This document shows positions 1 to 54,360 of a stretch of 64,000 nt of DNA, piece by piece; within the stretch, counting starts at the first letter, position 1, and the number at the start of each line of letters is the position of its first letter. This DNA comes from a virus. Made by a program: the position numbers and the translations under genes. The notes below the pieces were generated by a model. The model searched no databases. It was given only the letters and a program-made list of their open reading frames with translations, and was not told the DNA's origin. The stretch spans positions 1-64,000 of the IMG/VR virus record IMGVR_UViG_3300027708_000033; one strand, given 5' to 3'.

Positions 1-119
1 TTCTAGTAGAGTTTCACGCTCTTTAGTAGCATCTTTAGGATTTGTTCCTGACGCTTTTTCTCGCCACTCTCTTGTATTTCAAAGACACGTCTTTGGAAGT
101 CGTCTAGTCCTGTGGTCAT
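1..119 (-). CDS. hypothetical protein, 5' part only (runs off left edge)
   Basis: ATG at 119 overlaps the stop of the upstream ORF (ATGA); frame MTTGLDDFQRRVFEIQES... stays open to position 1. Confidence 0.6.
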
Positions 120-259
120 TTGTTTTCTTCCTGCAATTCGTCCAGTCTAGCTGCTATTGAGTCAATGCGCTCACGAAGTACGTCTAGGGTGATACCCAAG
201 ATGTCTAGCCTCTCACCTATTCTGTCAAGCGCTATGTCAATGCTCTCAGGTTCATTCAT
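116..259 (-). CDS. small coiled-coil hypothetical protein (47 aa)
   Basis: Track ORF 116-352 trimmed to ATG 259, which overlaps the upstream stop (ATGA); heptad pattern IDIALDRIGERLDILGITLDVL. Confidence 0.6.
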   Translation of the reverse strand: MNEPESIDIALDRIGERLDILGITLDVLRERIDSIAARLDELQEENK

Positions 260-435
260 TTTTTGTATAGTTCCTTCCATGCCTTTACGGTAAAGCGTTC
301 TCCGTTTTCCATAACAACAGGACGCCAACGTCCCTCCCAGAAAAGATACCAAGTACCTTTTTGTGTCTCATGCCACTTACCTTGATTGAACCTACGGCGA
401 CTAGTTCGCCGTTCATTTAGATTCCATCTAGCCAT
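256..435 (-). CDS. small Trp/Arg-rich hypothetical protein (59 aa, not in track)
   Basis: Manually translated MARWNLNERRTSRRRFNQGKWHETQKGTWYLFWEGRWRPVVMENGERFTVKAWKELYKK; AAGGAGAGG upstream; stop overlaps next start. Confidence 0.6.
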   Translation of the reverse strand: MARWNLNERRTSRRRFNQGKWHETQKGTWYLFWEGRWRPVVMENGERFTVKAWKELYKK

Positions 436-665
436 CTAAGTAAGCCTCTCCTTGCCACACTGGTGCGCGTGTTAGTGGCTATTTTAGCAAACAAGCTCAG
501 CGCATGCGCCATTGTAGCAGGATTTTTTGATGCAGAGCGCAAATCCCAAACCCTTGATTTTCTAACCATCTGAGGCTACTTTGTACAATAATTTATAATA
601 ATTAGACGCCTCAGTTTTTGCTTATAGAGCTAACTATAAACTTATACGATTTTTGCTGCCGGCGG

Positions 666-39362: not shown

Positions 39363-42266
39363 TTATTTGTTTTCTAACGTTTCTATTCTAGCAGCCATTG
39401 AGGCTATAAGGCTCTCTAAAGAGGTGAGTTTCTCGGCATGAGCTCGTGCAACAATTTGAAGTGCCGACACATAAAACTCGTACTGAATAGTCTCAGGTAG
39501 CCCTTCAGAGTCGTATGAGATGTATGCATGCAGTCCGGCGTCGTGCATCTGTTCAGCAATCATACCGGCATGCTTAGGCGCAGAGCTTTCTTCTTCATTG
39601 TAGTGATACTGCACTGGTATAACAGATAGAACTTGCTCAGCTGTGTATTGTAGCGGTTCGATGTTCTTCTTAAACCTACGGCTAGACGCTACGTAGCCTA
39701 GTGTGTCAGGTGTCGTAGAAGAGGTGACGTATACCGAGCGGTAAGACGTAGTTAGAGTGTTGCCGTACACGTTCTGTGCATAGACTCGACCGACGCTCGA
39801 CAAGTTGATTACACCTAGAGTAGCACTTCCGTCATAGTAAATTCCGGCGCTAGTAGTGTTTGTTCTAACAGCAAAACCATTATTACCTGCAGTGTAGTCT
39901 CCCATGTAGGTCAGCCCGCCTAGCGGATTTATAAATATCGAAGATGCAACGTTAGCGCTTGTCAGAGCCTGAATCTGCGTCGCAGACATCTTTATTCTAG
40001 AAGAGCCGGTGTTTCCAATTATAAAGGCAACGTTTTCGTTAGTCGTCGTAACGCTTGCGCTAGCGTATCCAATCTGTACAGGACCGTTTAGACGAATCTT
40101 TGAATAGCCGCCGTTTCCGTTGACGCTACCGGCAGTTCCAATTGTGGCAATTATGTCTCCCCAACCGGTATCTAAAGTCAGGTTTCCCCAGGTCGGGTCT
40201 GAGAAAGACCCCCCACTAGTGCTAAGACCTAAAGTTCCGGTGCCTAAATACGCTGCGCTATATGGATTAGCTCCGCCTGCGTTAGTGATAGATGCTGATA
40301 AAATACCATAGGCAACAGGAGAACCTGACTGATTGTCATAAATACCGAGAGAAAATCCGGTGCTGCCACTTGTACCACTGCTGCTAAATCCGCCTAGAAA
40401 AAATGACTGTTTAGATGCGTATGCACCTAAGATTCCAGGACCTGCTGTAGTGGCACCAGGCAACGTAATGTGCCCAAACTGAATGTAGTTCACCGGGCTA
40501 GCTAGAGTTGAGTCGGCAAGACGAATTGTAGTTGTAGCAGTAATACGGTCACCTGTAATAGAACCTGCAACAATTGCGTTACCATAAAGCGTATTAGCGA
40601 CAACAGTGTTACCGTAAAGGCTGTTAGCAATAATTGTGTTACCTGATAGTGTGGCAGCAATTACTGTGTTACCAGATAGCGTATTAGCGACTACCGTGTT
40701 TCCATAAAGCGTATTAGCAAGAACGGTATTGCCAGATAAACTGTTAGCAATAACTGTGTTACCGTTTAGCGTGTTAGCGACAATAGAGTTACCTTGAAGC
40801 GTGTTGGCAATTACTGTGTTACCGCTGATAGTGTTTGCTAGAACAGTGTTGCCAGATAGGGTATTGGCAAGTATTGTGTTACCGCTTAGTGTGTTGGCGA
40901 CAATGGTGTTACCGTTTATTGTGTTAGCGATAACTGTATTGCCGTTTAGAGTGTTGGCTATTACAGAATTGCCCTGAAGTGTGTTGGCGACAATGGTATT
41001 ACCACTCAAGGTGTTGGCGATAATTGAGTTACCGAAGACCGTGTTGGCAACTAAGGTATTGCCGTACAGCGTGTTAGCTGTGACTCGGTCACCAGCAATG
41101 CTGTTGGCCAAGATGTTGTTACCGGTAATAGTGTTTGCAGCTATCTTTGCACCGGTTATGCTGTTAGCCAGAATAGCATTTGCTGTCACGGCGTTAGTTG
41201 CTATGGCGTTGGCTGTGATTGCGTTAGCAGCAATAGCGTTAGCTGTTACGGCACCAGCATCTATCTTTGCTGCTGTAATTGAATTAGCTTGAATAGCAAC
41301 AGCAGTAACGGCATTAGCTGCAATAGCGTTTGCAGTAATAGCGTTAGCAGCAATAGCATTAGCCGTTACAGCGTTAGCATCTATCTTTGCTGCTGTAATT
41401 GAATTAGCTGCAATGGCATTTGCTGTTACAGCATTTGCTGCAATTTTAGTGCCAGTAATAGCAGCCGCTGCTATAGCATCACTATCAACGGCGTTAGCGA
41501 CTATGTTTCTAGTATTGACAGCAGCATTTGCTATTGCGTTACTGTCTACAGCATTTGCTGAAATCTTAGTACTAGTGATAGCGGCAGACGCTATAGCGTT
41601 ACTGTCTACAGCATTTGCAGCAATCTTTCCAATTACAACTGCGTTAGGTGCAATCTCTATAGAGGTGACAGCGTTAGCGGCAATTTGAAGCTCTGTGACA
41701 GCGTTAGCGGCAATCTTAGTTGAGTCGATTGCGTTAGCAAGAATGTTTATAGACTGCACTGCGTTAGCGGCAAGACCGGCATTTACTACTGCACCAACTG
41801 CGATAGCAGTAGAAGTTACCGCATTTGCTGCTATCTGTGCAGACGTAACAGCGTTAGCAGCAATTTTTGCAGATGTAACTGCATCCGCTGCAAGTTTTTC
41901 ATTGACTACTGCGTTAGCAGCAATGATGGTGCTTGTCACCGAGTTGGCAGCAAGCTGAGCCTCTGTAACAGCGTTAGCAGCAATTTTTATTGTCGAGATA
42001 GCGCCGTCAAAAATCTTAGATTCGGTGACAATAAGGTCTTGAATCTGAGCAGAACCAACAGAACCACCTGCGATAAGTGTACCGTCGATGATTCCAGGCA
42101 AGATTGAGCCTTGTGTAACAGCTTCTTGCTGAATGTGAGTAGCACTAATAGTGTTAGCTGAAATCTTACGAGCAGCAGGTCTAGTTTCTAGGTTGTATAG
42201 ACGGTTGTCTATGTTTGAAATGTTACTGTTTAGAGTGTTTTTAGAGCGATAACGTCTACTTGCCAA
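39363..42266 (-). CDS. tail fibre/spike with 10-aa repeats and C-terminal intramolecular chaperone (peptidase S74-like)
   Basis: Long NAVT...IAA and ANTL.GNTV decamer repeats; SSRRFKKNI...PV.Y.Y...G.IAE followed by a coiled coil. Confidence 0.85.
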   Translation of the reverse strand: MASRRYRSKNTLNSNISNIDNRLYNLETRPAARKISANTISATHIQQEAVTQGSILPGIIDGTLIAGGSVGSAQIQDLIVTESKIFDGAISTIKIAANAVTEAQLAANSVTSTIIAANAVVNEKLAADAVTSAKIAANAVTSAQIAANAVTSTAIAVGAVVNAGLAANAVQSINILANAIDSTKIAANAVTELQIAANAVTSIEIAPNAVVIGKIAANAVDSNAIASAAITSTKISANAVDSNAIANAAVNTRNIVANAVDSDAIAAAAITGTKIAANAVTANAIAANSITAAKIDANAVTANAIAANAITANAIAANAVTAVAIQANSITAAKIDAGAVTANAIAANAITANAIATNAVTANAILANSITGAKIAANTITGNNILANSIAGDRVTANTLYGNTLVANTVFGNSIIANTLSGNTIVANTLQGNSVIANTLNGNTVIANTINGNTIVANTLSGNTILANTLSGNTVLANTISGNTVIANTLQGNSIVANTLNGNTVIANSLSGNTVLANTLYGNTVVANTLSGNTVIAATLSGNTIIANSLYGNTVVANTLYGNAIVAGSITGDRITATTTIRLADSTLASPVNYIQFGHITLPGATTAGPGILGAYASKQSFFLGGFSSSGTSGSTGFSLGIYDNQSGSPVAYGILSASITNAGGANPYSAAYLGTGTLGLSTSGGSFSDPTWGNLTLDTGWGDIIATIGTAGSVNGNGGYSKIRLNGPVQIGYASASVTTTNENVAFIIGNTGSSRIKMSATQIQALTSANVASSIFINPLGGLTYMGDYTAGNNGFAVRTNTTSAGIYYDGSATLGVINLSSVGRVYAQNVYGNTLTTSYRSVYVTSSTTPDTLGYVASSRRFKKNIEPLQYTAEQVLSVIPVQYHYNEEESSAPKHAGMIAEQMHDAGLHAYISYDSEGLPETIQYEFYVSALQIVARAHAEKLTSLESLIASMAARIETLENK
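40560..41990 (-). repeat. 30-bp (10-aa) degenerate tandem repeat array of two unit types
   Basis: Period-30 recurrence of GTTAGC/GTTGGC; exact internal duplications, e.g. GCATCTATCTTTGCTGCTGTAATTGAATTAGCT near 41257 and 41377. Confidence 0.85.
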
Positions 42267-46096: not shown

Positions 46097-49000
46097 TTAG
46101 CCGATCCAACCGGAGCGAAACTTCACCTCTAGTGTTCCGGTAGTATTGCTTCCGGCATCGGTAATCTTGATTGTGTTGACGCCTGGCTGAATAACAATCC
46201 AGTCAACTAGTGTGTCTAGCAGCTCGCGACTTCCAGTAGTGTTGTTGTTCAAGAACACATCACGATTATAGGTGTCTATTACCATGAATTCATTGTTAGT
46301 CAAAGTAACTGTTCCTGTCGCTGCAGCGTACGCGTAATCTGCTGAGGCGCCTGTGTAAACATAGGTCAAGTCTAGAGTCGTTGAACTTGTGAAGTTGACA
46401 GCTTGGACTACAAAAGTTCCATCAAAACTGTTTCCAACTGAGGCTATGGTAACGCTGTCTCCGACAGCTAGTTTATAGTTAGTAGAAACTGAAACTGTTG
46501 CATACTTGACTCCGTCGGTAGTGACACGCTTTACTGCAGTCACCGGGCCTAGGCTTAGTCCAGCTGCGCTTAGCGCACTAAGCATCTTTATGCTTTGGTT
46601 AGTGGTTGTGTTCTTGATTACACTGTTTGCAGTAAACGGTCCGGTGACTGTCATCAATGCGCATACGTTAGTGTTGCCGATGTTGTTGAACGTTGCACTT
46701 CCACCTGAGGTAATAGTTGACTTTGTAAAGCCTTCATCTACAGTAGTGTCATAGTGGTACTTGATTGGGTCAGGTGCACGAAGTCCCACGGAGAAGTCCA
46801 TACGACCACGAGCATTCACAACATCGATAGTCGGCTGGCCGCTCAAACGAACTTGAGCGCCTTTTACCGGCGACTCGTCGGCTAGTAGCCAGCCTTTAGT
46901 GCGTACAAGGTCTATGGCCTTTACAAGTTTGTTTCTTGCAGCATCTATGTACGAAGCGTCAGGCGGCAGGATTGACCCCTTGAGCTCAATTTGCCTTGCC
47001 GTGTATCTACCAACTACGTCGTAGGAACCGTCTCCAAGACCGCGTGGTAGGTCCTGAATGTCGCTCTGGGTCTGTCCCCACCAGCCATTAATTCCTGTGC
47101 AGACCCAGACAATCGAATCCTCATCAATAGTGTTTAGGATTAGTCCGTTTATGTTCACATCGGCATTTAGCTGCATACCTGTAAGGTGAGGGTATGGAAC
47201 AGGACGTAAGGCGTTATTGACCTTTGTAGTTTCTTGGCCTTGGCTAAAGTCGTCTGTGTACTCATTGACATAGGCAGATGCTTCTAGCATTGCAGCGTCA
47301 ATCAAGAACTTCTGTCCTGCAGTTCCAGCGGTAGGCTGGTACAGTCGTATCTGTGCAATTACAGCATCTGCAGGAGCAACAGCAGTTACAGCTAGTCGTA
47401 CCCAGCCTTCGTCGCTGACCATTGGTATAAGTGCGCCGGTAGCAAACGAGAGCTGTGTACCTGTAAAGTCGTACCAGTAGAGATAAAGCCTAAGTGAAGA
47501 GGCTTCTTGCCCAACTGGAATTTTTACATATAACGACGCAGAATAAGTTGTGCCTGGAGCAATTGCTGTAACACTGCCGTCAAAATAAGAAGTCGGTGTA
47601 GAACTTGCTTCAAACACTGCACCATCAAAATAAGCCTGAGTACCGCTTGCTGGCGTGGCGGTTGAATAAAATACAAGACCTGCCGTTACCGCTCCGAGAG
47701 GAGCAGTTGCCGTGACGCTTATGCGAGTCCAACCTGAAGACGTGACTGTCTTAGATGTTCCGTTTATAGTTGAAAAACTAGAGCCACCGCTGTTTCTCCA
47801 CTCAATGCCTGCGTAGTACGAAACCGCAGTGTTGACGTCACGGACATAAATAGAAGAAGTGTACGTGACACCAACAGTTACCGCCGTCCACGCAAAAGCC
47901 ACACCTGAGTTAAATATTCCAAAGGTTCCAAAACCGTCCGCGGTAACTAAGGCCGATTTAGTTCCAATGTAAAACTGAGACGCTGAAGCAACTGCAGATA
48001 TAGAGTTAAGAGACCCCCAGCTAGGATTAGCAAGATACTGCTGGACGCTAGTACTTGCGTTAGCAGTGCCAGACCATGCATAAGTTAGATTAGCTGCAGC
48101 CGTTGTGCTGCCATCAAAGTATGACTTAAGCTGAGAAGACTGTTCTACTAGTAACTGGTCGTAATAAAAGACATCTCCCGCTGACGGGTTAGTGACAAGC
48201 TCTATTTTCATAGTGGTTAAGTCAGAAGGCATAGTATAAGTTCGGCTTATTCTAGTCCAAGTTCCTGCCGTAACTGAAACTGCCGTAGATGGGTATAGAC
48301 TACCAGAACCAGTGCCGAGCGTCATAAATAAAGAAACAGTTTGTGCACGACTAGCGTACACATATACTGAGGCGGTATAAGTTTTGCTTGCAAAAGTTGA
48401 CCCATTAGCAAAAAAGTCTGATGTTAGATTAAGTTGGCTCGCTCCTGTTCCTTGGTACACATTAACAGCATACGAGTAAGAACCGCTTTGCTTGTCTGCA
48501 CTAGTTCTGTATCGACCGTATGCCAAGTTTCCTGGGTTGTATCCAGAAACCCAACCATCAACCATGTTTGCAACTTGATTACTTGTTGAAGCATCAGCGG
48601 TTCCATTCCATGTGTAAGTGAAGTCACCTGCTGCAGTCGTTGACCCGTCAAAATACGTATTAACTGAAGAACCTGCTTCAAGCATAGCAGCGTCTATGTA
48701 AACCTGTGAACCATACGCAGCTGTTGAAGGAACTACTAGTACAAGTGAAGCACCTGTTGCAGCAGCGGCTCCAGCTCCAGACGGAGCAACGCCAGTGACG
48801 CTAATTCTTGTCCAAGAACCGGTAGAAATAGCTGTTGCAGTACCACCACTAGTACTTATGTAACCTCCGCTGCCACGCCAGTCAATATTTACATAAATGT
48901 TTCCACCGAGGCTTAGGTCTTTAACATATAAAGAACCAACATAAGTAGTTCCAGCAGTGACGGCCGTGTTATAGGAATAAGTGGCGAGATTGCCAGAACT

Positions 49001-50011
49001 ACTAAGGCTTGTCACTAAACCGCTATAAGTACCTAGATAGCTCGTTGTAGAACTTCTAGCAACGATACTTTTTGCCAAATCTGCTGAGTAGTTAGGTGCA
49101 GCAGAGTATTGCTGTAGACTTGTGCTTAAGTTAGTGGTGCTAGACCAGGCATAAGTAAACTCATTAGCAGCAGCGGTGTTCCCATCAAAGTAAGGCCTAG
49201 TCGTTGATGCTAGGTCTATCAGAACGGCGTCTAGGTAGAAAGTTTTTCCTACAGCAACTGTCGCGCTGTTTAGTACATAAAAAGTGTAGTTTTGAGCAGT
49301 AGTCGTGGTAAATGTAACTGAAAGTCTTTCCCAAGTATCGTACAAAGTCGCGTTTGTAGATGTCACTGCAAAGCTGGTTCCTTGAACGCTAAGCTGTGGT
49401 AGAACAGAACCAGTTGGAGTGTAGACGTACGCAGAATAAGTGTATGTTGTAGTAGCAGGCAGGGAAAGTGCGTATCCGGCACCATTGTTTGTTCCACCTG
49501 TACCAGCGGCGTACGTGACAAGCAAACTTTGACTGCCGACGTATTTTTGCGCAGTAGACACGGCAATACTGGCAGTATTTGGTGTTGCTCCAGCACCAAG
49601 CCAACCATTCGTAGGAGTAGTAGCGTGTTCAAAACTTGGGTTTGTGCACAAGTTAATTCTGCTAGTAGTTGTAGTAGAAGTTGCCGCAAAGTTTGGGTTA
49701 AGAATTAGATTAGTGCGAATGGTTGCCGTGCTAGACGATGCTTCAAAACCAGGGTTAGTCGCTAAGTTAGTTCTAGCAGTGGTTGTGGCAGTAGTGTCTT
49801 CAAAGCTTGGATTGCTGATTAGGTTTGTAGTTGCAGCTGATGACCATGCCACACCAGCTGAAGCAATTGCTGGCTTAGTCACTTCTAGACATGTGCTGCC
49901 AAAGAAGCCATCCGTTGTGCTACGAACAAACGAAGTTCCACTTCCAAGAGCGGACCATCCGGTAGTGTCTGTCTTAAACGACGGGTTACCTATAAGGTTT
50001 ATACGACTCAT
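46097..50011 (-). CDS. distal tail (Dit-like) protein with carbohydrate-binding-module-like domains
   Basis: Follows the tape measure gene; NL..NPSF/YFDG CBM-like repeats; C-terminal GWWG..R.I.L.G..L.APDP.K..N.G....PG.N.I...RSGW. Confidence 0.8.
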   Translation of the reverse strand: MSRINLIGNPSFKTDTTGWSALGSGTSFVRSTTDGFFGSTCLEVTKPAIASAGVAWSSAATTNLISNPSFEDTTATTTARTNLATNPGFEASSSTATIRTNLILNPNFAATSTTTTSRINLCTNPSFEHATTPTNGWLGAGATPNTASIAVSTAQKYVGSQSLLVTYAAGTGGTNNGAGYALSLPATTTYTYSAYVYTPTGSVLPQLSVQGTSFAVTSTNATLYDTWERLSVTFTTTTAQNYTFYVLNSATVAVGKTFYLDAVLIDLASTTRPYFDGNTAAANEFTYAWSSTTNLSTSLQQYSAAPNYSADLAKSIVARSSTTSYLGTYSGLVTSLSSSGNLATYSYNTAVTAGTTYVGSLYVKDLSLGGNIYVNIDWRGSGGYISTSGGTATAISTGSWTRISVTGVAPSGAGAAAATGASLVLVVPSTAAYGSQVYIDAAMLEAGSSVNTYFDGSTTAAGDFTYTWNGTADASTSNQVANMVDGWVSGYNPGNLAYGRYRTSADKQSGSYSYAVNVYQGTGASQLNLTSDFFANGSTFASKTYTASVYVYASRAQTVSLFMTLGTGSGSLYPSTAVSVTAGTWTRISRTYTMPSDLTTMKIELVTNPSAGDVFYYDQLLVEQSSQLKSYFDGSTTAAANLTYAWSGTANASTSVQQYLANPSWGSLNSISAVASASQFYIGTKSALVTADGFGTFGIFNSGVAFAWTAVTVGVTYTSSIYVRDVNTAVSYYAGIEWRNSGGSSFSTINGTSKTVTSSGWTRISVTATAPLGAVTAGLVFYSTATPASGTQAYFDGAVFEASSTPTSYFDGSVTAIAPGTTYSASLYVKIPVGQEASSLRLYLYWYDFTGTQLSFATGALIPMVSDEGWVRLAVTAVAPADAVIAQIRLYQPTAGTAGQKFLIDAAMLEASAYVNEYTDDFSQGQETTKVNNALRPVPYPHLTGMQLNADVNINGLILNTIDEDSIVWVCTGINGWWGQTQSDIQDLPRGLGDGSYDVVGRYTARQIELKGSILPPDASYIDAARNKLVKAIDLVRTKGWLLADESPVKGAQVRLSGQPTIDVVNARGRMDFSVGLRAPDPIKYHYDTTVDEGFTKSTITSGGSATFNNIGNTNVCALMTVTGPFTANSVIKNTTTNQSIKMLSALSAAGLSLGPVTAVKRVTTDGVKYATVSVSTNYKLAVGDSVTIASVGNSFDGTFVVQAVNFTSSTTLDLTYVYTGASADYAYAAATGTVTLTNNEFMVIDTYNRDVFLNNNTTGSRELLDTLVDWIVIQPGVNTIKITDAGSNTTGTLEVKFRSGWIG

Positions 50012-53000
50012 CCGCGAGCTCCTCTACGCATTTGAAGTTGAAGCACACGACCGACTTCAGCAGCAAGTTCAACGGTGTCCATTCCAGGACTCGAGTTGAC
50101 ACTTATCGAAATGTTGACATCTCCACTAGACTGTGCTCCTGCCATACGAGCAATAGCCTGGTCAGGGTAACTGCCGTTGTTGACAGCGTTTAGTAGTGGA
50201 AGATACTTCTTTGTCGACAGGGCGTTGACAACAAACTCACCAGATGAAATCATTGCAGGAATCAGGTCGTCACGAGGACCACCACGGCCAACAGCGTAAC
50301 CTGAACCGTTTACATATTTTGCGATGCCGCCGTTTGCAAGTTTAAGAAGTCCGCCGTCTTTCTTTTTCTTGAAGGCATCAACAATAGACTGGAATGCGCT
50401 ACCCCAAGTGCTCCCATCAAACAGGTTAAAGCCCTTAGGCTTATTTTTTACGTCAAAGTCTACAGGAATCTTTACTGTACCAGGCTTGAGTTTAGCAACA
50501 GCATCTTGAACCTTAGTTTTTCCAGTTGCAATGCCGTCTACAAGTGTTTGTGCCCAGTGAGCACCATGCTCTTTGACACCTTCGTCGTAGATTGCTTTCC
50601 ACGTAGTTAAAGTTTTCTGTGCTTCTGTGACTGTTAGCGCCTTTGAAGTCATGCCCTCGGATAGGGCCAAAGCAGCCTTAGCACCTACTGTTGAAAAAGC
50701 TGTCTGAATTACACTTGCCTGATTAGATATACCAGTTGCTGCACCACTGGAAGCTGTTGCGGCCGCAGCTTCAAATGATGCTCTAGCACGTTCAATAGTT
50801 TTGGTGCCTCCGTCTACCATCTTCTGTGCTAGCTGTGCTGCAATCTTCGGGTCCATAGCGCTAAGACCTTTGATAGTAGCGTCACCGGCATTGTGCGCAG
50901 CTAGGTACAGAAGATTGTTTTGGAAGGCAGCAGCTTCTCTAACTTGCCTGTTCTGCTCTTTTAAGAACTTGTCTAGAGAAACTTTTCCATCTGTGGTAGC
51001 AGCGTCAATTGCGTCGGAGTAGCTTATCATTTTGCCGGCTGCATCTGTGATGCCCTTGGCTAGGTTTTCAGCTGCGACCCTGTTGTTCTCCATTTGAGCA
51101 GCGCCTTTACCCTGAGCCAAAGTGACCAGAGTCTGCTGCCGCTCTTGTTCAGTCATTGCTGCGGTGTTGATACCTAGACTTGTCGCTAGCTCCTGAATGT
51201 CTGTTTTATAGTCAGGCATTGTGTCAAGAAGTGCTGATACGGCTTCATCATTATCTCCGAGAGCTACACTCATTTCCTGGAAGCGAGCCTGAGCAGCAGG
51301 CATGTTGCTTTGAGCTAGAGTACTGAGTTGAGAGCCAACTTTTTTAAGTTGACCGGCCATCTGGTCAAACTCAGCAACCATTGCTCGGCTACCAAGATAG
51401 TCACCAGCTTGGTTGAACCAAGGAGCTTTAGTGTAACTGTTAAGTTTAACCACAGCAGCACCCAAGTCTTTGCTACCTACAGCTGCAATTTTTATAGTCT
51501 TATTCGCATCGGCCCATTGGGTAGTCCAACTGCTGCTAGGCAGTAGGTCGACAAAGTTGACGGATTCCAATGACTTTCTTAGTGTCACTGCACCGTCTAC
51601 ACCGGTGAGTAGCGAGTTCCTAATTTGGTCACCGGACATTGCTGCATCTAGTCTTGCCTGCTTAAACGCCTCGTCCAGTTGAACAGCAACATCGAGAAGA
51701 ACTCCGGCTGCCATTGCCCAGCCGGCACCTTTAGTTAGTTTTGAGAAGAATCCGTTTTTAGCAACGTTTGCAGTTTTAAGTGCTGCTTCGTTTTTAGCAA
51801 CGGCTGTAGTTTGCGCTTCAGCTGCTAACGTGGCTCTGCCTTGGGCGGCTTTTAGTTCAGACTGGCCTAGCACAGCCTTTTGTGCAGCCACGTTTTCACG
51901 CTCAATGGCTAGTGCTAAGTCTTGCTCAGCTTTAGTTTCTCGCATGACTGCGGCAGTGTATCTATCTGCTGCGGCGGCTCTCTCTGCGTCGCTTGCTGTT
52001 CCGGACTGATTGACCTTCATTGCCTCAGCTTCAGCAATGTTAGCCTCATTTACAGCTAGTGCTAGCTTGTCCTCAGCCTGAGTCCTAGCATTAGTCGCTT
52101 GCAATAATCTTGCTCGCTGAGCAGCAAGGCTTGCCTCAGCCTTTTGAACTCCAAGAGTGGCTTTGTCTAATGCAATGTTAGCAGCCTGAAGAGCTTTTGT
52201 AGTTTTTGCTGCCTCTGCGTTAGCAGTCTTTACGCGGTTAGTTTCACCAAACAGCGCATTCATTCCTCGTGTCACTGATTTTAGTTGGCCAATGAAGTAA
52301 TTAAAGATAAACTGTGCACCCTTGAATCCAAAAATAAGAGCAACTATTGCACCATGGAATACGCCTAGAACGTCTAAAACAGGTTTTAGTGCATTTAGCA
52401 CATTGGTGACAATGTCTACAAGTCCAGAAAGAGTTCTAAAGAATGTGCTCGCAGCACCAGAATCAGATAGAGCAGCAATAAACTTAGTTAGACTTACAAG
52501 AAGCTGTGCAAGAGCAGGCTGAGTCTTAATAGATTCTTGAAGAATAGTTTGAATAAACGGAGTCGCTTGTTTTAGCGTCTGCCAGAATATCTTTGTTTCA
52601 GGAGCAGTTCCTAACTCCTTGAACACATGTAAAACACCACCTATTGTGGTGAGCATTTCCTTTGTATTAGCCGCAGCTCCAAGGAAATACGATTGAGATT
52701 TACTCTGCCCGGCAACTGTGTTCATTTCACGCCATTTGCCTGTAGCTGTCTGAAGGAAATTCAGCATTAGTTGGCCGCCACTTGTTGGGCCAAAGTTAGC
52801 CTTTATCAGACCGCCTAACCCTGAGAACACATTTCCAGCAATTTTACCGAACTGTGCTGCAAGCTCACCGGCGCGGTTGAAAAACTTAGTTAGTGAACCG
52901 TCCTGGAGACCTTTAGTCACAAAGTTGTTAAACTTAGTTGAAATAGTTACCAGCCAGCCGGCAAACTTTTCTGTTAGCGGCGCAGCGGCTTTAAGTATTC

Positions 53001-54360
53001 CAAGCATTCCACTAAAAGCGTTTCCAGCAGCTTTACCAAAGCTAGATAGCACGGTACGCGATGTGGAGACAAATGAGTCCATTCGACCGCGAACTGTTGC
53101 GGTATCAAAGATGTCAACAAAGTTTTTAGTTGCATCTCCCATGCCGAGAGCTAGCTGGTGAATGTTACCCTTTAGCGCAGGAAATGCCGGTCCGTGGATT
53201 AGTCTATCTAGTTGCTGCTGTAATACTGGTAAGAATCCAGAAGCTGCCGCTTCCTTTAGTGCTTGAAACTCTGGATGCATCTTTGCAAGATATCTAGCAA
53301 ACTCTTTCTGCGTCACAGTGAGCTTCATTAGCGCTGCGTTAGCTTGCTCAGCTCCTGCAGTTTGAGCTCGTCTTAGTGCACGCTCCGCTGCAGCCTGAGA
53401 CTGAAGTGCGTCACGTAGAGTTTTGTTTAGGTCTAGCTCGGCATTGTTTCTTGCATTTGTCGCATCGCGGACAGATTCGATACCCATGATTCCAGTTTGT
53501 GCAACACGGTCTTGCTCTTTACTGGTAACTTCTGCATTTGCCTTTGACCTGCGAAAGGCTAGTTCAGCCTCCTGGTACTGAAGCATAGCCTGTCTACGAG
53601 CCATGCTGCTAGGCGGCATATCCTGAACACGGGCAAGAGTCAATCTTGCCTTTTCAAGGTTTAGACTTGCACCTGTCTCATCTAGCGCAGCTTGTTCAGC
53701 TTCAAAGCCAATCTGCCGCATTTGTTCACGGCCGTCTTTAATGGCATTATTTAGATTATGTTGTGCCTCTTCAAGGCGCTTATGTGCAGCTGCTAGGCTT
53801 TCATCGTTGCGCTGAATGGTTTGTGCTAAGGCACGTTCAGCATCTTGCTGCGCTCTTGCTCGTTGTACGCCACCTGTAGGGTTTGCTAATGTGCTTGCTG
53901 CAGCACCGACACCGGACAGCGCTAGTTTAGCAACTGCAAATCCTGCTTTCAGTCCGGCAAAAGCGCCTACTACTGCAACTAACGAAGCTGCAGCACCACC
54001 AGCGACTCCGATTAGAGAACCTAAACCTCCGACTAGAGAAGATACGCTGCCAGATAGAACACCAATACCGCCTTGAGCAATGTATCCAGCCTTGCTCAAG
54101 GCCATCATCTTTTCACGAGCCTTATCAGCTCCAGGAGCAAGCGACTCTAACTTGTTTAGAATTTCATCAAAGCCGCCGCCTTTGCTGCCTCCACCACTGG
54201 CCATTCCTTTTTCAAGGCCGCGACTTATATCTTGTCCAGCCTTTTGACCGATGCCTTCGGCACCGCGAAGTTTGTCCTTTAGGTCTCTCTCAAAACCTTC
54301 AGTAATTACGCGCGCAATGAGCGTAATGCTACCAACGTTATTAGCGCCGCCGATGGCCAT
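50008..54360 (-). CDS. tape measure protein
   Basis: 1450 aa, Ala-rich and helical, follows the chaperone pair; C-terminal G.GGPRDD.IPAMIS.GEFVVNA. Confidence 0.92.
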   Translation of the reverse strand: MAIGGANNVGSITLIARVITEGFERDLKDKLRGAEGIGQKAGQDISRGLEKGMASGGGSKGGGFDEILNKLESLAPGADKAREKMMALSKAGYIAQGGIGVLSGSVSSLVGGLGSLIGVAGGAAASLVAVVGAFAGLKAGFAVAKLALSGVGAAASTLANPTGGVQRARAQQDAERALAQTIQRNDESLAAAHKRLEEAQHNLNNAIKDGREQMRQIGFEAEQAALDETGASLNLEKARLTLARVQDMPPSSMARRQAMLQYQEAELAFRRSKANAEVTSKEQDRVAQTGIMGIESVRDATNARNNAELDLNKTLRDALQSQAAAERALRRAQTAGAEQANAALMKLTVTQKEFARYLAKMHPEFQALKEAAASGFLPVLQQQLDRLIHGPAFPALKGNIHQLALGMGDATKNFVDIFDTATVRGRMDSFVSTSRTVLSSFGKAAGNAFSGMLGILKAAAPLTEKFAGWLVTISTKFNNFVTKGLQDGSLTKFFNRAGELAAQFGKIAGNVFSGLGGLIKANFGPTSGGQLMLNFLQTATGKWREMNTVAGQSKSQSYFLGAAANTKEMLTTIGGVLHVFKELGTAPETKIFWQTLKQATPFIQTILQESIKTQPALAQLLVSLTKFIAALSDSGAASTFFRTLSGLVDIVTNVLNALKPVLDVLGVFHGAIVALIFGFKGAQFIFNYFIGQLKSVTRGMNALFGETNRVKTANAEAAKTTKALQAANIALDKATLGVQKAEASLAAQRARLLQATNARTQAEDKLALAVNEANIAEAEAMKVNQSGTASDAERAAAADRYTAAVMRETKAEQDLALAIERENVAAQKAVLGQSELKAAQGRATLAAEAQTTAVAKNEAALKTANVAKNGFFSKLTKGAGWAMAAGVLLDVAVQLDEAFKQARLDAAMSGDQIRNSLLTGVDGAVTLRKSLESVNFVDLLPSSSWTTQWADANKTIKIAAVGSKDLGAAVVKLNSYTKAPWFNQAGDYLGSRAMVAEFDQMAGQLKKVGSQLSTLAQSNMPAAQARFQEMSVALGDNDEAVSALLDTMPDYKTDIQELATSLGINTAAMTEQERQQTLVTLAQGKGAAQMENNRVAAENLAKGITDAAGKMISYSDAIDAATTDGKVSLDKFLKEQNRQVREAAAFQNNLLYLAAHNAGDATIKGLSAMDPKIAAQLAQKMVDGGTKTIERARASFEAAAATASSGAATGISNQASVIQTAFSTVGAKAALALSEGMTSKALTVTEAQKTLTTWKAIYDEGVKEHGAHWAQTLVDGIATGKTKVQDAVAKLKPGTVKIPVDFDVKNKPKGFNLFDGSTWGSAFQSIVDAFKKKKDGGLLKLANGGIAKYVNGSGYAVGRGGPRDDLIPAMISSGEFVVNALSTKKYLPLLNAVNNGSYPDQAIARMAGAQSSGDVNISISVNSSPGMDTVELAAEVGRVLQLQMRRGARG

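Follow-up and report, generated by a model that had tools for sequence, protein, structure and literature searches.

A candidate distal tail protein gene with a long N-terminal arm

We analyzed a 64,000-nucleotide stretch of viral DNA (positions 1 to 64,000 of IMG/VR record IMGVR_UViG_3300027708_000033; hereafter the window), whose source genome is one contig of 127,237 bases with 47% G+C. The open reading frame (ORF) list and its translation place a gene for a protein of 1304 amino acids (aa) on the minus strand at 46097..50011, and we focus on this candidate distal tail protein (Dit). Its first part, aa 1-929, is a putative arm of domains resembling carbohydrate-binding modules (CBMs), and the Dit core follows at aa 930-1304 (46100..47224, minus strand). 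Sequence comparison and structure prediction together make it very probable, in our judgment, that this Dit, from a large actinobacterial phage, bears an arm of five nested sugar-binding-type domains. The range covered by a preliminary description of the locus, 47270-50011 on the minus strand, corresponds to aa 1-914 of the ORF.

The Dit assignment draws on both homology and gene order. PHROG 33, "distal tail protein Dit," matches aa 942-1186 (E = 2.5e-23), and the C-terminal domain of Pfam SPP1_Dit (PF22768) aligns at aa 1236-1302 with E = 5.5e-4 and 20.5 bits, short of the cut-off of 25. Immediately upstream of the gene is an ORF at 50008..54360 (1450 aa) that matches tape measure PHROGs, with a best E of 6.8e-48. 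Because the Dit ATG overlaps the tape measure stop codon (ATGA, window 50008-50011), coupled translation of the two genes is suggested. The same order is found in Microbacterium phage Cece, whose homologue gp81 directly follows the tape measure protein gp80, and among cultured phages the nearest relatives of this protein are minor tail proteins from Microbacterium and Arthrobacter phages, with identities below 60%. The best explanation of these matches is that the gene encodes the Dit of a 127-kilobase (kb) siphophage related to Microbacterium and Arthrobacter phages.

Five first-strand motifs and four domain bodies

The arm contains five copies of the motif NLxxNPxF, at aa 5 (NLIGNPSF), 63 (NLISNPSF), 82 (NLATNPGF), 101 (NLILNPNF), and 120 (NLCTNPSF), the last four exactly 19 aa apart. 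These are the five N-terminal first-strand motifs of the preliminary description, and the strict pattern occurs nowhere else in the six-frame translation of the window (127,996 residues). Searching the long ORFs of the whole genome with a looser pattern returned the same five sites and two unrelated single matches. In 20,000 composition shuffles of the protein, the mean count was 0.0005 for NLxxNPxF and 0.011 for a second motif, YFDG, which occurs here at aa 274, 453, 631, 794, and 809. All of these but aa 794 close a domain body, in agreement with the four YFDG-terminated bodies described earlier. The remaining copy, aa 794-797 (window 47621-47632), is placed within the last strand of body 4 rather than at a domain end; that strand reads QAYFDGAVFE, and its counterpart in the other bodies is FYxDAxLxE. 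Behind each of the first three domain-closing YFDG copies stands a third conserved motif, FTYxWxGTxxxSTS, at aa 285, 464, and 642.

These motifs, together with the alignments described below, divide the arm into seven parts, all on the minus strand. The N-terminal part of domain 1 (aa 1-59; 49835..50011) carries the first strand NLIGNPSF at aa 5-12. It is followed by a cluster of four putative first strands (aa 60-127; 49631..49834), each of the form xTxRTNLxxNPxF with a period of 19 aa, so that strands 2 to 5 start at aa 63, 82, 101, and 120; motifs, predicted strands, and the starting points of CBM alignments all locate them. Body 1 (aa 128-277; 49181..49630) is contiguous with strand 5, ends with YFDG at aa 274-277, and would form the innermost and complete domain, as indicated by Pfam CBM_4_9 at aa 120-246 and by the solved module 1h6x. 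Three segments follow, whose predicted partners are taken from VIA-align ranges. Return hairpin 1 (FTYAWSSTTNLSTS, aa 285-298) with body 2, up to YFDG at aa 453-456 (48644..49180), would be completed by strand 4. Return hairpin 2 (FTYTWNGTADASTS, aa 464-477) with body 3, up to YFDG at aa 631-634 (48110..48643), would be completed by strand 3, and return hairpin 3 (LTYAWSGTANASTS, aa 642-655) with body 4, up to YFDG at aa 809-812 (47576..48109), by strand 2. The last part (aa 813-929; 47225..47575) is assigned to the C-terminal portion of domain 1 by alignment to the relative P0024 from residue 61 and by a domain-end profile match at aa 891-918.

Pfam recognizes the fold in the whole protein, where CBM_4_9 (PF02018) scores 67.9 bits against a cut-off of 25.9 over three stretches. 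The best of these, aa 120-246, covers profile positions 2-129, and positions 2-9 fall on aa 120-127; the earlier statement that NL..NP.F begins CBM4/9-like jelly rolls thus holds. On separate pieces Pfam behaved erratically: strand 5 with body 1 gave no match as a piece, although the whole protein does match, and bodies 2 and 3 alone matched from profile positions 26 and 34 onward. Nothing useful was returned for body 4 alone or for either half of domain 1. Comparison of the whole protein with PDB sequences gave chance-level matches only, the best being the unrelated GDAP1 (E = 0.036).

At the DNA level, Tandem Repeats Finder detected no repeats in the gene, and direct repeats within it are short and 72-84% alike. 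This absence of DNA-level repetition argues against recent duplication and leaves no micro-homology to be read at the insertion junctions, where the preliminary description had proposed to look for it.

An interrupted outermost domain

The outermost level can be read by comparison with P0024, a relative in which the N-terminal jelly roll is unsplit (relatives are designated here by P numbers, the window protein being P0001). BLASTP aligned aa 1-59 of the window protein to P0024 residues 1-59 (58% identity, E = 2e-18) and aa 817-1197 to residues 61-445 (43% identity, E = 3e-101). These two collinear segments imply that 757 aa have been inserted between two adjacent residues of an unsplit domain, and the insert is flanked by two segments of one parent, as expected of a nested insertion. 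The remainder of the first domain, which the earlier description had placed after the bodies, is located by the same alignment at aa 813-929. A single unsplit N-terminal jelly roll is also present in P0105, P0148, and P0151, as judged by direct reading. Because aa 1-61 are poorly predicted (pLDDT, the predicted local distance difference test score, 33-58 in model 1 below), the split fold of domain 1 is assigned by homology. At the level of sequence, three things are established: the motifs themselves, the interruption of domain 1, and the match in number between strands and bodies.

Other arrangements of the N-terminal region occur among the relatives. P0083 has two domains in tandem, and in the 805-aa Dit relative P0041 the first jelly roll is interrupted elsewhere, at a loop after GWSA, where a small, unrelated Thr-rich beta domain is present in three copies instead of CBMs. 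A precomputed PF16190 match is present in many Dit relatives. Domain 1 seems to tolerate inserts at several loops.

Predicted structures and the pairing of strands with bodies

To read which strand completes which body, we used two AlphaFold2 models. Model 1 covers aa 1-930 (alignment of 32 sequences; pLDDT 79.8; predicted template modeling score, pTM, 0.62), and model 2 covers aa 77-640 (40 sequences; pLDDT 90.3, pTM 0.82; construct numbering plus 76 gives aa). The read-out was the first and last residue aligned to solved single-domain CBMs by VIA-align, with 50 rows per comparison. When a template of about 150 residues has 135-155 of them aligned at a root-mean-square deviation (rmsd) of 2-3, it can cover only one domain, and a range of several hundred residues in such an alignment therefore denotes a discontinuous domain.

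In model 1, 44 of 50 rows from re-aligned Foldseek matches joined strand 2 to body 4 (aa 52-63 to 801-809); five others covered body 1 (116-123 to 267-301), and one was multi-domain (rmsd 68.7). A full representative search on the same model gave strand 2 with body 4 in 26 of 50 rows, body 1 in 13, and strand 4 with body 2 in five (96-106 to 445-473, individually 100..445, 106..446, 100..450, 101..445, and 96..473). The rest comprised one row for strand 3 with body 3 (79..626), two unclean rows (97..615 and 96..611), and three multi-domain rows (rmsd 15-33). Model 2 joined strand 3 to body 3 in 30 of 50 rows (construct 1-7..549-564, that is, aa 77-83 to 625-640), alongside 11 rows for body 1, four for strand 4 with body 2 (24..369, 23..372, 22..403, and 22..405, that is, aa 98-100 to 445-481), and five multi-domain rows (rmsd 15-18). 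As for the templates of the two unclean rows, 1v0a_A aligned to strand 3 with body 3 in model 2, and 7zkq_A was not among the rows listed.

The individual superpositions on solved CBM4 and CBM22 modules are close, with about 140-155 aligned residues and rmsd 2.2-3.1 for single-module alignments over the four domains. The best template for strand 3 with body 3 was 2xom_A in model 2 (Z 16.5, rmsd 2.2, 139 aligned). Strand 2 with body 4 is exemplified by the CBM22-1 module 4xuo (Z 16.0, rmsd 2.6, 147 aligned), and body 1 with strand 5 by the CBM22 module 1h6x (Z 16.2-16.6, rmsd 2.2-2.4, 144 aligned, range 116..273); 4bj0 also superposed, with Z 15.9-16.2. Some templates extend past YFDG, to aa 295-301 for body 1 or to aa 473-481 for strand 4 with body 2, which implies that the FTYxW hairpin packs with the domain it follows. 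These ranges from two AlphaFold2 models bear out, for strands 2 to 5, the earlier expectation that strand i completes body 6-i, and the nested pairing at the inner levels is supported as far as predicted models can do so. Foldseek against BFVD returned only multi-domain matches to actinophage minor tail proteins (query TM-score, TMq, at most 0.55), which are uninformative on nesting.

The same data bear on a simpler arrangement, in which the domains would be arrayed like beads on a string. Bodies 2 to 4 would then be complete by themselves, each taking its first strand from the STSxQ strand of the preceding FTYxW hairpin, and the four clustered NLxxNPxF copies would serve as a Thr-rich repeat linker or be relics of domains since lost. 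There is a predicted strand just upstream of each strand-less body (aa 298-304, 477-484, and 655-661), as this arrangement would have it, and the Pfam matches to bodies 2 and 3, which begin well inside the profile, are compatible with it, although they do not reveal where the first strand comes from. Against it, templates begin 0-6 residues before the motif N in all four domains, so that solved CBMs align each clustered strand as their own first strand in the register of the contiguous domain; this uniform start implies that the clustered strands occupy the place of that domain's own first strand. They are also confidently modeled, at pLDDT about 88-97 (blocks at aa 75-82, 92-101, and 113-120 have 88-94 in model 1 and 87-96 in model 2).

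A second alternative accepts that the clustered strands complete the bodies and changes the partners: pairing could follow the same order as the chain, or strands could be swapped between neighboring subunits of the Dit ring, tying the arms together. In the three VIA-align comparisons on the two monomer models, no row with rmsd below 6 joined a same-order strand and body. Same-order ranges appear only in rows from two-domain templates, at rmsd 15-33.

Relatives with fewer and more levels

Homologues with fewer CBM-like domains, whose comparison the preliminary description had called for, do exist and fit the nested arrangement. Besides the four unsplit proteins, P0040 has the smallest nest, with two strands and two domains: NLISNPSF is followed by a complete domain (NLLTYPSF...AYYE) and then by the rest of the first domain from VTGW, so that the insert lies exactly between NPSF and xTGW. 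First strands and domains read directly from the proteins number four and four in P0004 (1111 aa), five and five in the window protein, and seven and seven in P0003 (1774 aa; also designated L001), which is only about 57-60% identical to the window protein at the protein level. In this series strand number tracks body number, contrary to what is expected if the clustered strands were a linker or relics.

Comparison with P0004 shows how levels may change. The two proteins share 98% identity in domain 1, 87% in body 1, 84% in body 4, and 90% in the Dit core, and the B-type body is 56% and the putative B-type strand 58% identical. P0004 is without the C-type body and has one first strand fewer than the window protein (four versus five). 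These differences imply that a level has been gained, lost, or replaced as two separate gene segments.

A broader survey began with a profile search that returned 2039 proteins at E ≤ 0.001, from which a set of 183 relatives (185 minus two copies of the window protein) was parsed with strand and domain-end profiles built for this analysis. The resulting counts are noisy, two of the seven P0003 strands and some domain ends being missed, and they serve as weak comparative evidence. At least one clustered surplus strand was found in 99 of the 183 relatives. Within these 99 proteins, a rule of one strand per domain end held exactly in 33 and within one in 58. The superfluous-strand rule expected of beads on a string held exactly in none and within one in 24.

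The CBM-rich minor tail proteins of actinobacterial phages, including cultured ones such as Arthrobacter phage Racecar (P0016), commonly contain clusters of two to seven NLxxNPxF-type strands with a spacing of about 19 aa. The nested build may be widespread in actinobacterial phage tail proteins.

On the metagenomic phage contig L013, a fibronectin-rich tail protein (L013:205-4740), which shares 85% identity with P0032, has only four domain ends but 12 first strands when read by eye (10 with the profile). Five kb downstream, a 1942-aa protein (L013:10001-15829; P0011) begins mid-domain and has 11 domain ends and three strands. The surplus of about eight strands in the one equals the deficit of eight in the other, making strand complementation between two proteins possible. 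P0033 and P0005, members of these two families, lie on contigs of 132,794 and 132,798 bases. We raise with low confidence the idea that first-strand relocation is a general, so far undescribed way of building adhesin arms in actinobacterial phages, in which strands and strand-less bodies may even sit on different tail proteins and be zipped together by complementation.

Strands and bodies as separate chains, and points against nesting

ESMFold2 was used to fold aa 58-119 (the strand cluster) and aa 278-815 (the bodies without a first strand of their own) as separate chains. The in-trans score was 0.60 (runs 0.60, 0.57, and 0.67) versus 0.00 for the best of three controls. In the calibration, which holds only roughly here because a custom alignment was used, 58 of 80 solved complexes and two of 110 mismatched pairs attained the mark; scores of 0.60 or below included only seven of the 80 solved complexes, and both passing mismatches. 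The runs agreed in at least 95% of contacts, with partner pLDDT of at least 72. The bodies reached pLDDT 86-87 with their cognate strands and 60-61 with unrelated partners, a difference from which nothing was drawn, as the control alignment may differ.

Docking of the strand cluster as a separate chain makes complementation in trans conceivable, as a swap between ring subunits would require, and the L013 pair, one protein with surplus strands and another with surplus bodies, points the same way. Nesting, by contrast, needs no more than a whole domain inserted behind a first strand, as seen in P0040. Given also the lack of same-order alignments in the monomer models, we regard same-order pairing or subunit swapping as very unlikely.

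Several observations nevertheless weigh against the nested arrangement. The in-trans result was graded no higher than "weak support." The sequence types of strands and bodies in P0001, P0003, and P0004 are as compatible with same-order as with nested pairing; since identical groupings follow from either order, type matching cannot decide between them. Across the 99 clustered-strand proteins, strand-less bodies and surplus strands match loosely (Spearman 0.36; the two numbers coincide in 28 of 99). In the P0005-P0012 family, only three strands accompany 11 domain ends; its members begin mid-domain, and this N-terminus is conserved in all eight representatives. These counts imply that a body preceded by an FTYxW hairpin may sometimes do without a clustered strand from its own chain, as the beads-on-a-string arrangement would hold; set beside the template register, the strand confidence, and the strand counts above, that arrangement remains highly improbable for the window protein. 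As to the models, aa 1-61 are of low confidence, and model 1 gave a single row for strand 3 with body 3 beside its two unclean rows. Both AlphaFold2 models come from one method with overlapping alignments, and the read-out reports end residues of alignments rather than contacts.

Proposed architecture of the nested arm

In the nested arrangement that we favor, a CBM4/9/22-like beta-jelly-roll, domain 1, would stand ahead of the Dit core and receive a 757-aa insert in one loop, between aa 59 and 817. The insert would itself be a four-level nest of like jelly rolls. On the outward path, only the first beta-strand (xTxRTNLxxNPxF) of each level would be laid down, which would account for the four first strands 19 aa apart. 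The chain would leave domain 1, contribute one strand to each of three future domains, and then form the innermost tip domain whole. On the return path it would build the bodies of the outer levels in reverse order, before completing the rest of domain 1 and the Dit core. Every body, that of the tip domain included, would close with YFDG, and an FTYxWxGTxxxSTS hairpin would come after each of the first three closures.

Such an out-and-back path would cross every domain junction twice, by two strands running in opposite directions, and would leave both chain ends at the base. From this double crossing and the pTM of 0.82 for three domains, we infer that the five modules form a stiff, double-threaded arm. 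The architecture may have originated when a whole domain was inserted immediately behind the first strand of one already present, as P0040 exemplifies, with the same event repeated at the innermost level. If the usual Dit hexamer forms, six arms, one per subunit, would place about 30 glycan-binding-type modules around the tail tip.

If correct, this architecture has practical consequences. Each module would be encoded in two DNA pieces, a strand of 57 nucleotides and a body of about 530, and module exchange, host-range engineering, and recombination analysis would have to pair them. Annotation with linear profiles would undercount such modules or misplace their boundaries. A double-threaded arm would be stiffer than beads on a string, which bears on the reach of the tail tip across the thick envelopes of Gram-positive or actinobacterial hosts. 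Because many minor tail proteins of cultured Arthrobacter and Microbacterium phages show this signature, the proposal can be tested directly on phages already available.

Downstream tail genes

The next gene downstream of the Dit gene encodes a minor tail protein of 1264 aa. Two genes downstream, at window 39363-42266, lies a gene for a 967-aa protein that matches tail fiber PHROGs and carries a C-terminal Peptidase_S74 domain (endosialidase chaperone; E = 3.8e-9); it is probably a self-cleaving fiber.

Comparison with known systems

Classical evolved Dits carry one or two CBMs, inserted in the C-terminal galectin-like domain of Dit. The window protein differs in having five predicted modules, nested, and placed ahead of the Dit core (aa 1-929 versus 930-1304): its CBM-like domains lie within aa 1-929 and its Dit matches within aa 942-1302, so that none sits inside the C-terminal Dit domain. 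The comparison with evolved Dits made in the preliminary description therefore stands in so far as CBM-like domains occur in a Dit protein, and fails for their position, which is N-terminal to the core and not inside the galectin domain. What is shared with the evolved Dits of lactococcal, Lactobacillus, streptococcal, and Bacillus phages is a distal tail protein with extra CBMs for host adhesion.

Evolved Dits of siphophages with Gram-positive hosts are reported to carry extra CBMs for host adhesion (PMC6669499, PMC10688798, PMC9128512). In mycobacteriophage Douge, the central fiber has two CBM-like domains, which are not nested, and glycan binding was demonstrated for CBM-like tail domains (PMC13033339). 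The predicted fold, the role of CBMs in evolved Dits, and the glycan-binding tail domains of Douge make glycan adhesion at the tail tip the likely function by analogy. The target would be host cell-wall polysaccharide, and host recognition would vary as levels are gained, lost, or exchanged.

For the single domains, the closest likeness is to tandem CBM22/CBM4 arrays of xylanases such as CBM22-1-CBM22-2 of Paenibacillus Xyn10C (4xup), with Z 15-17 and rmsd 2.2-2.6. Those modules, however, are contiguous and arranged head to tail, and the tandem template fits two domains of the window protein only at rmsd 15.3-15.4. For the path of the chain, the nearest parallel is the pilus adhesin RrgA of Streptococcus pneumoniae, in which nested insertion leads the chain out to a distal domain and back (PMC5333627). 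In that account, RrgA is a bacterial pilus protein with three levels of unlike domains, locked by isopeptide bonds. The arm described here would instead repeat a single homologous fold over five levels (seven in P0003), mostly interrupted directly behind the first strand, with no known isopeptide bond.

Literature searches on nested or discontinuous CBM arrays in phage tails returned no account of such arrays. CBM-bearing Dits and nested insertion are already known. What appears new is that the modules stand ahead of the Dit core, that nesting reaches five levels (seven in a relative), that all levels share one homologous fold, and that the domains are divided directly behind the first strand, an arrangement that leaves the tell-tale strand cluster. 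If confirmed, this one-fold nest would be among the deepest recursive domain insertions described, in a protein that is the first to meet the host surface.

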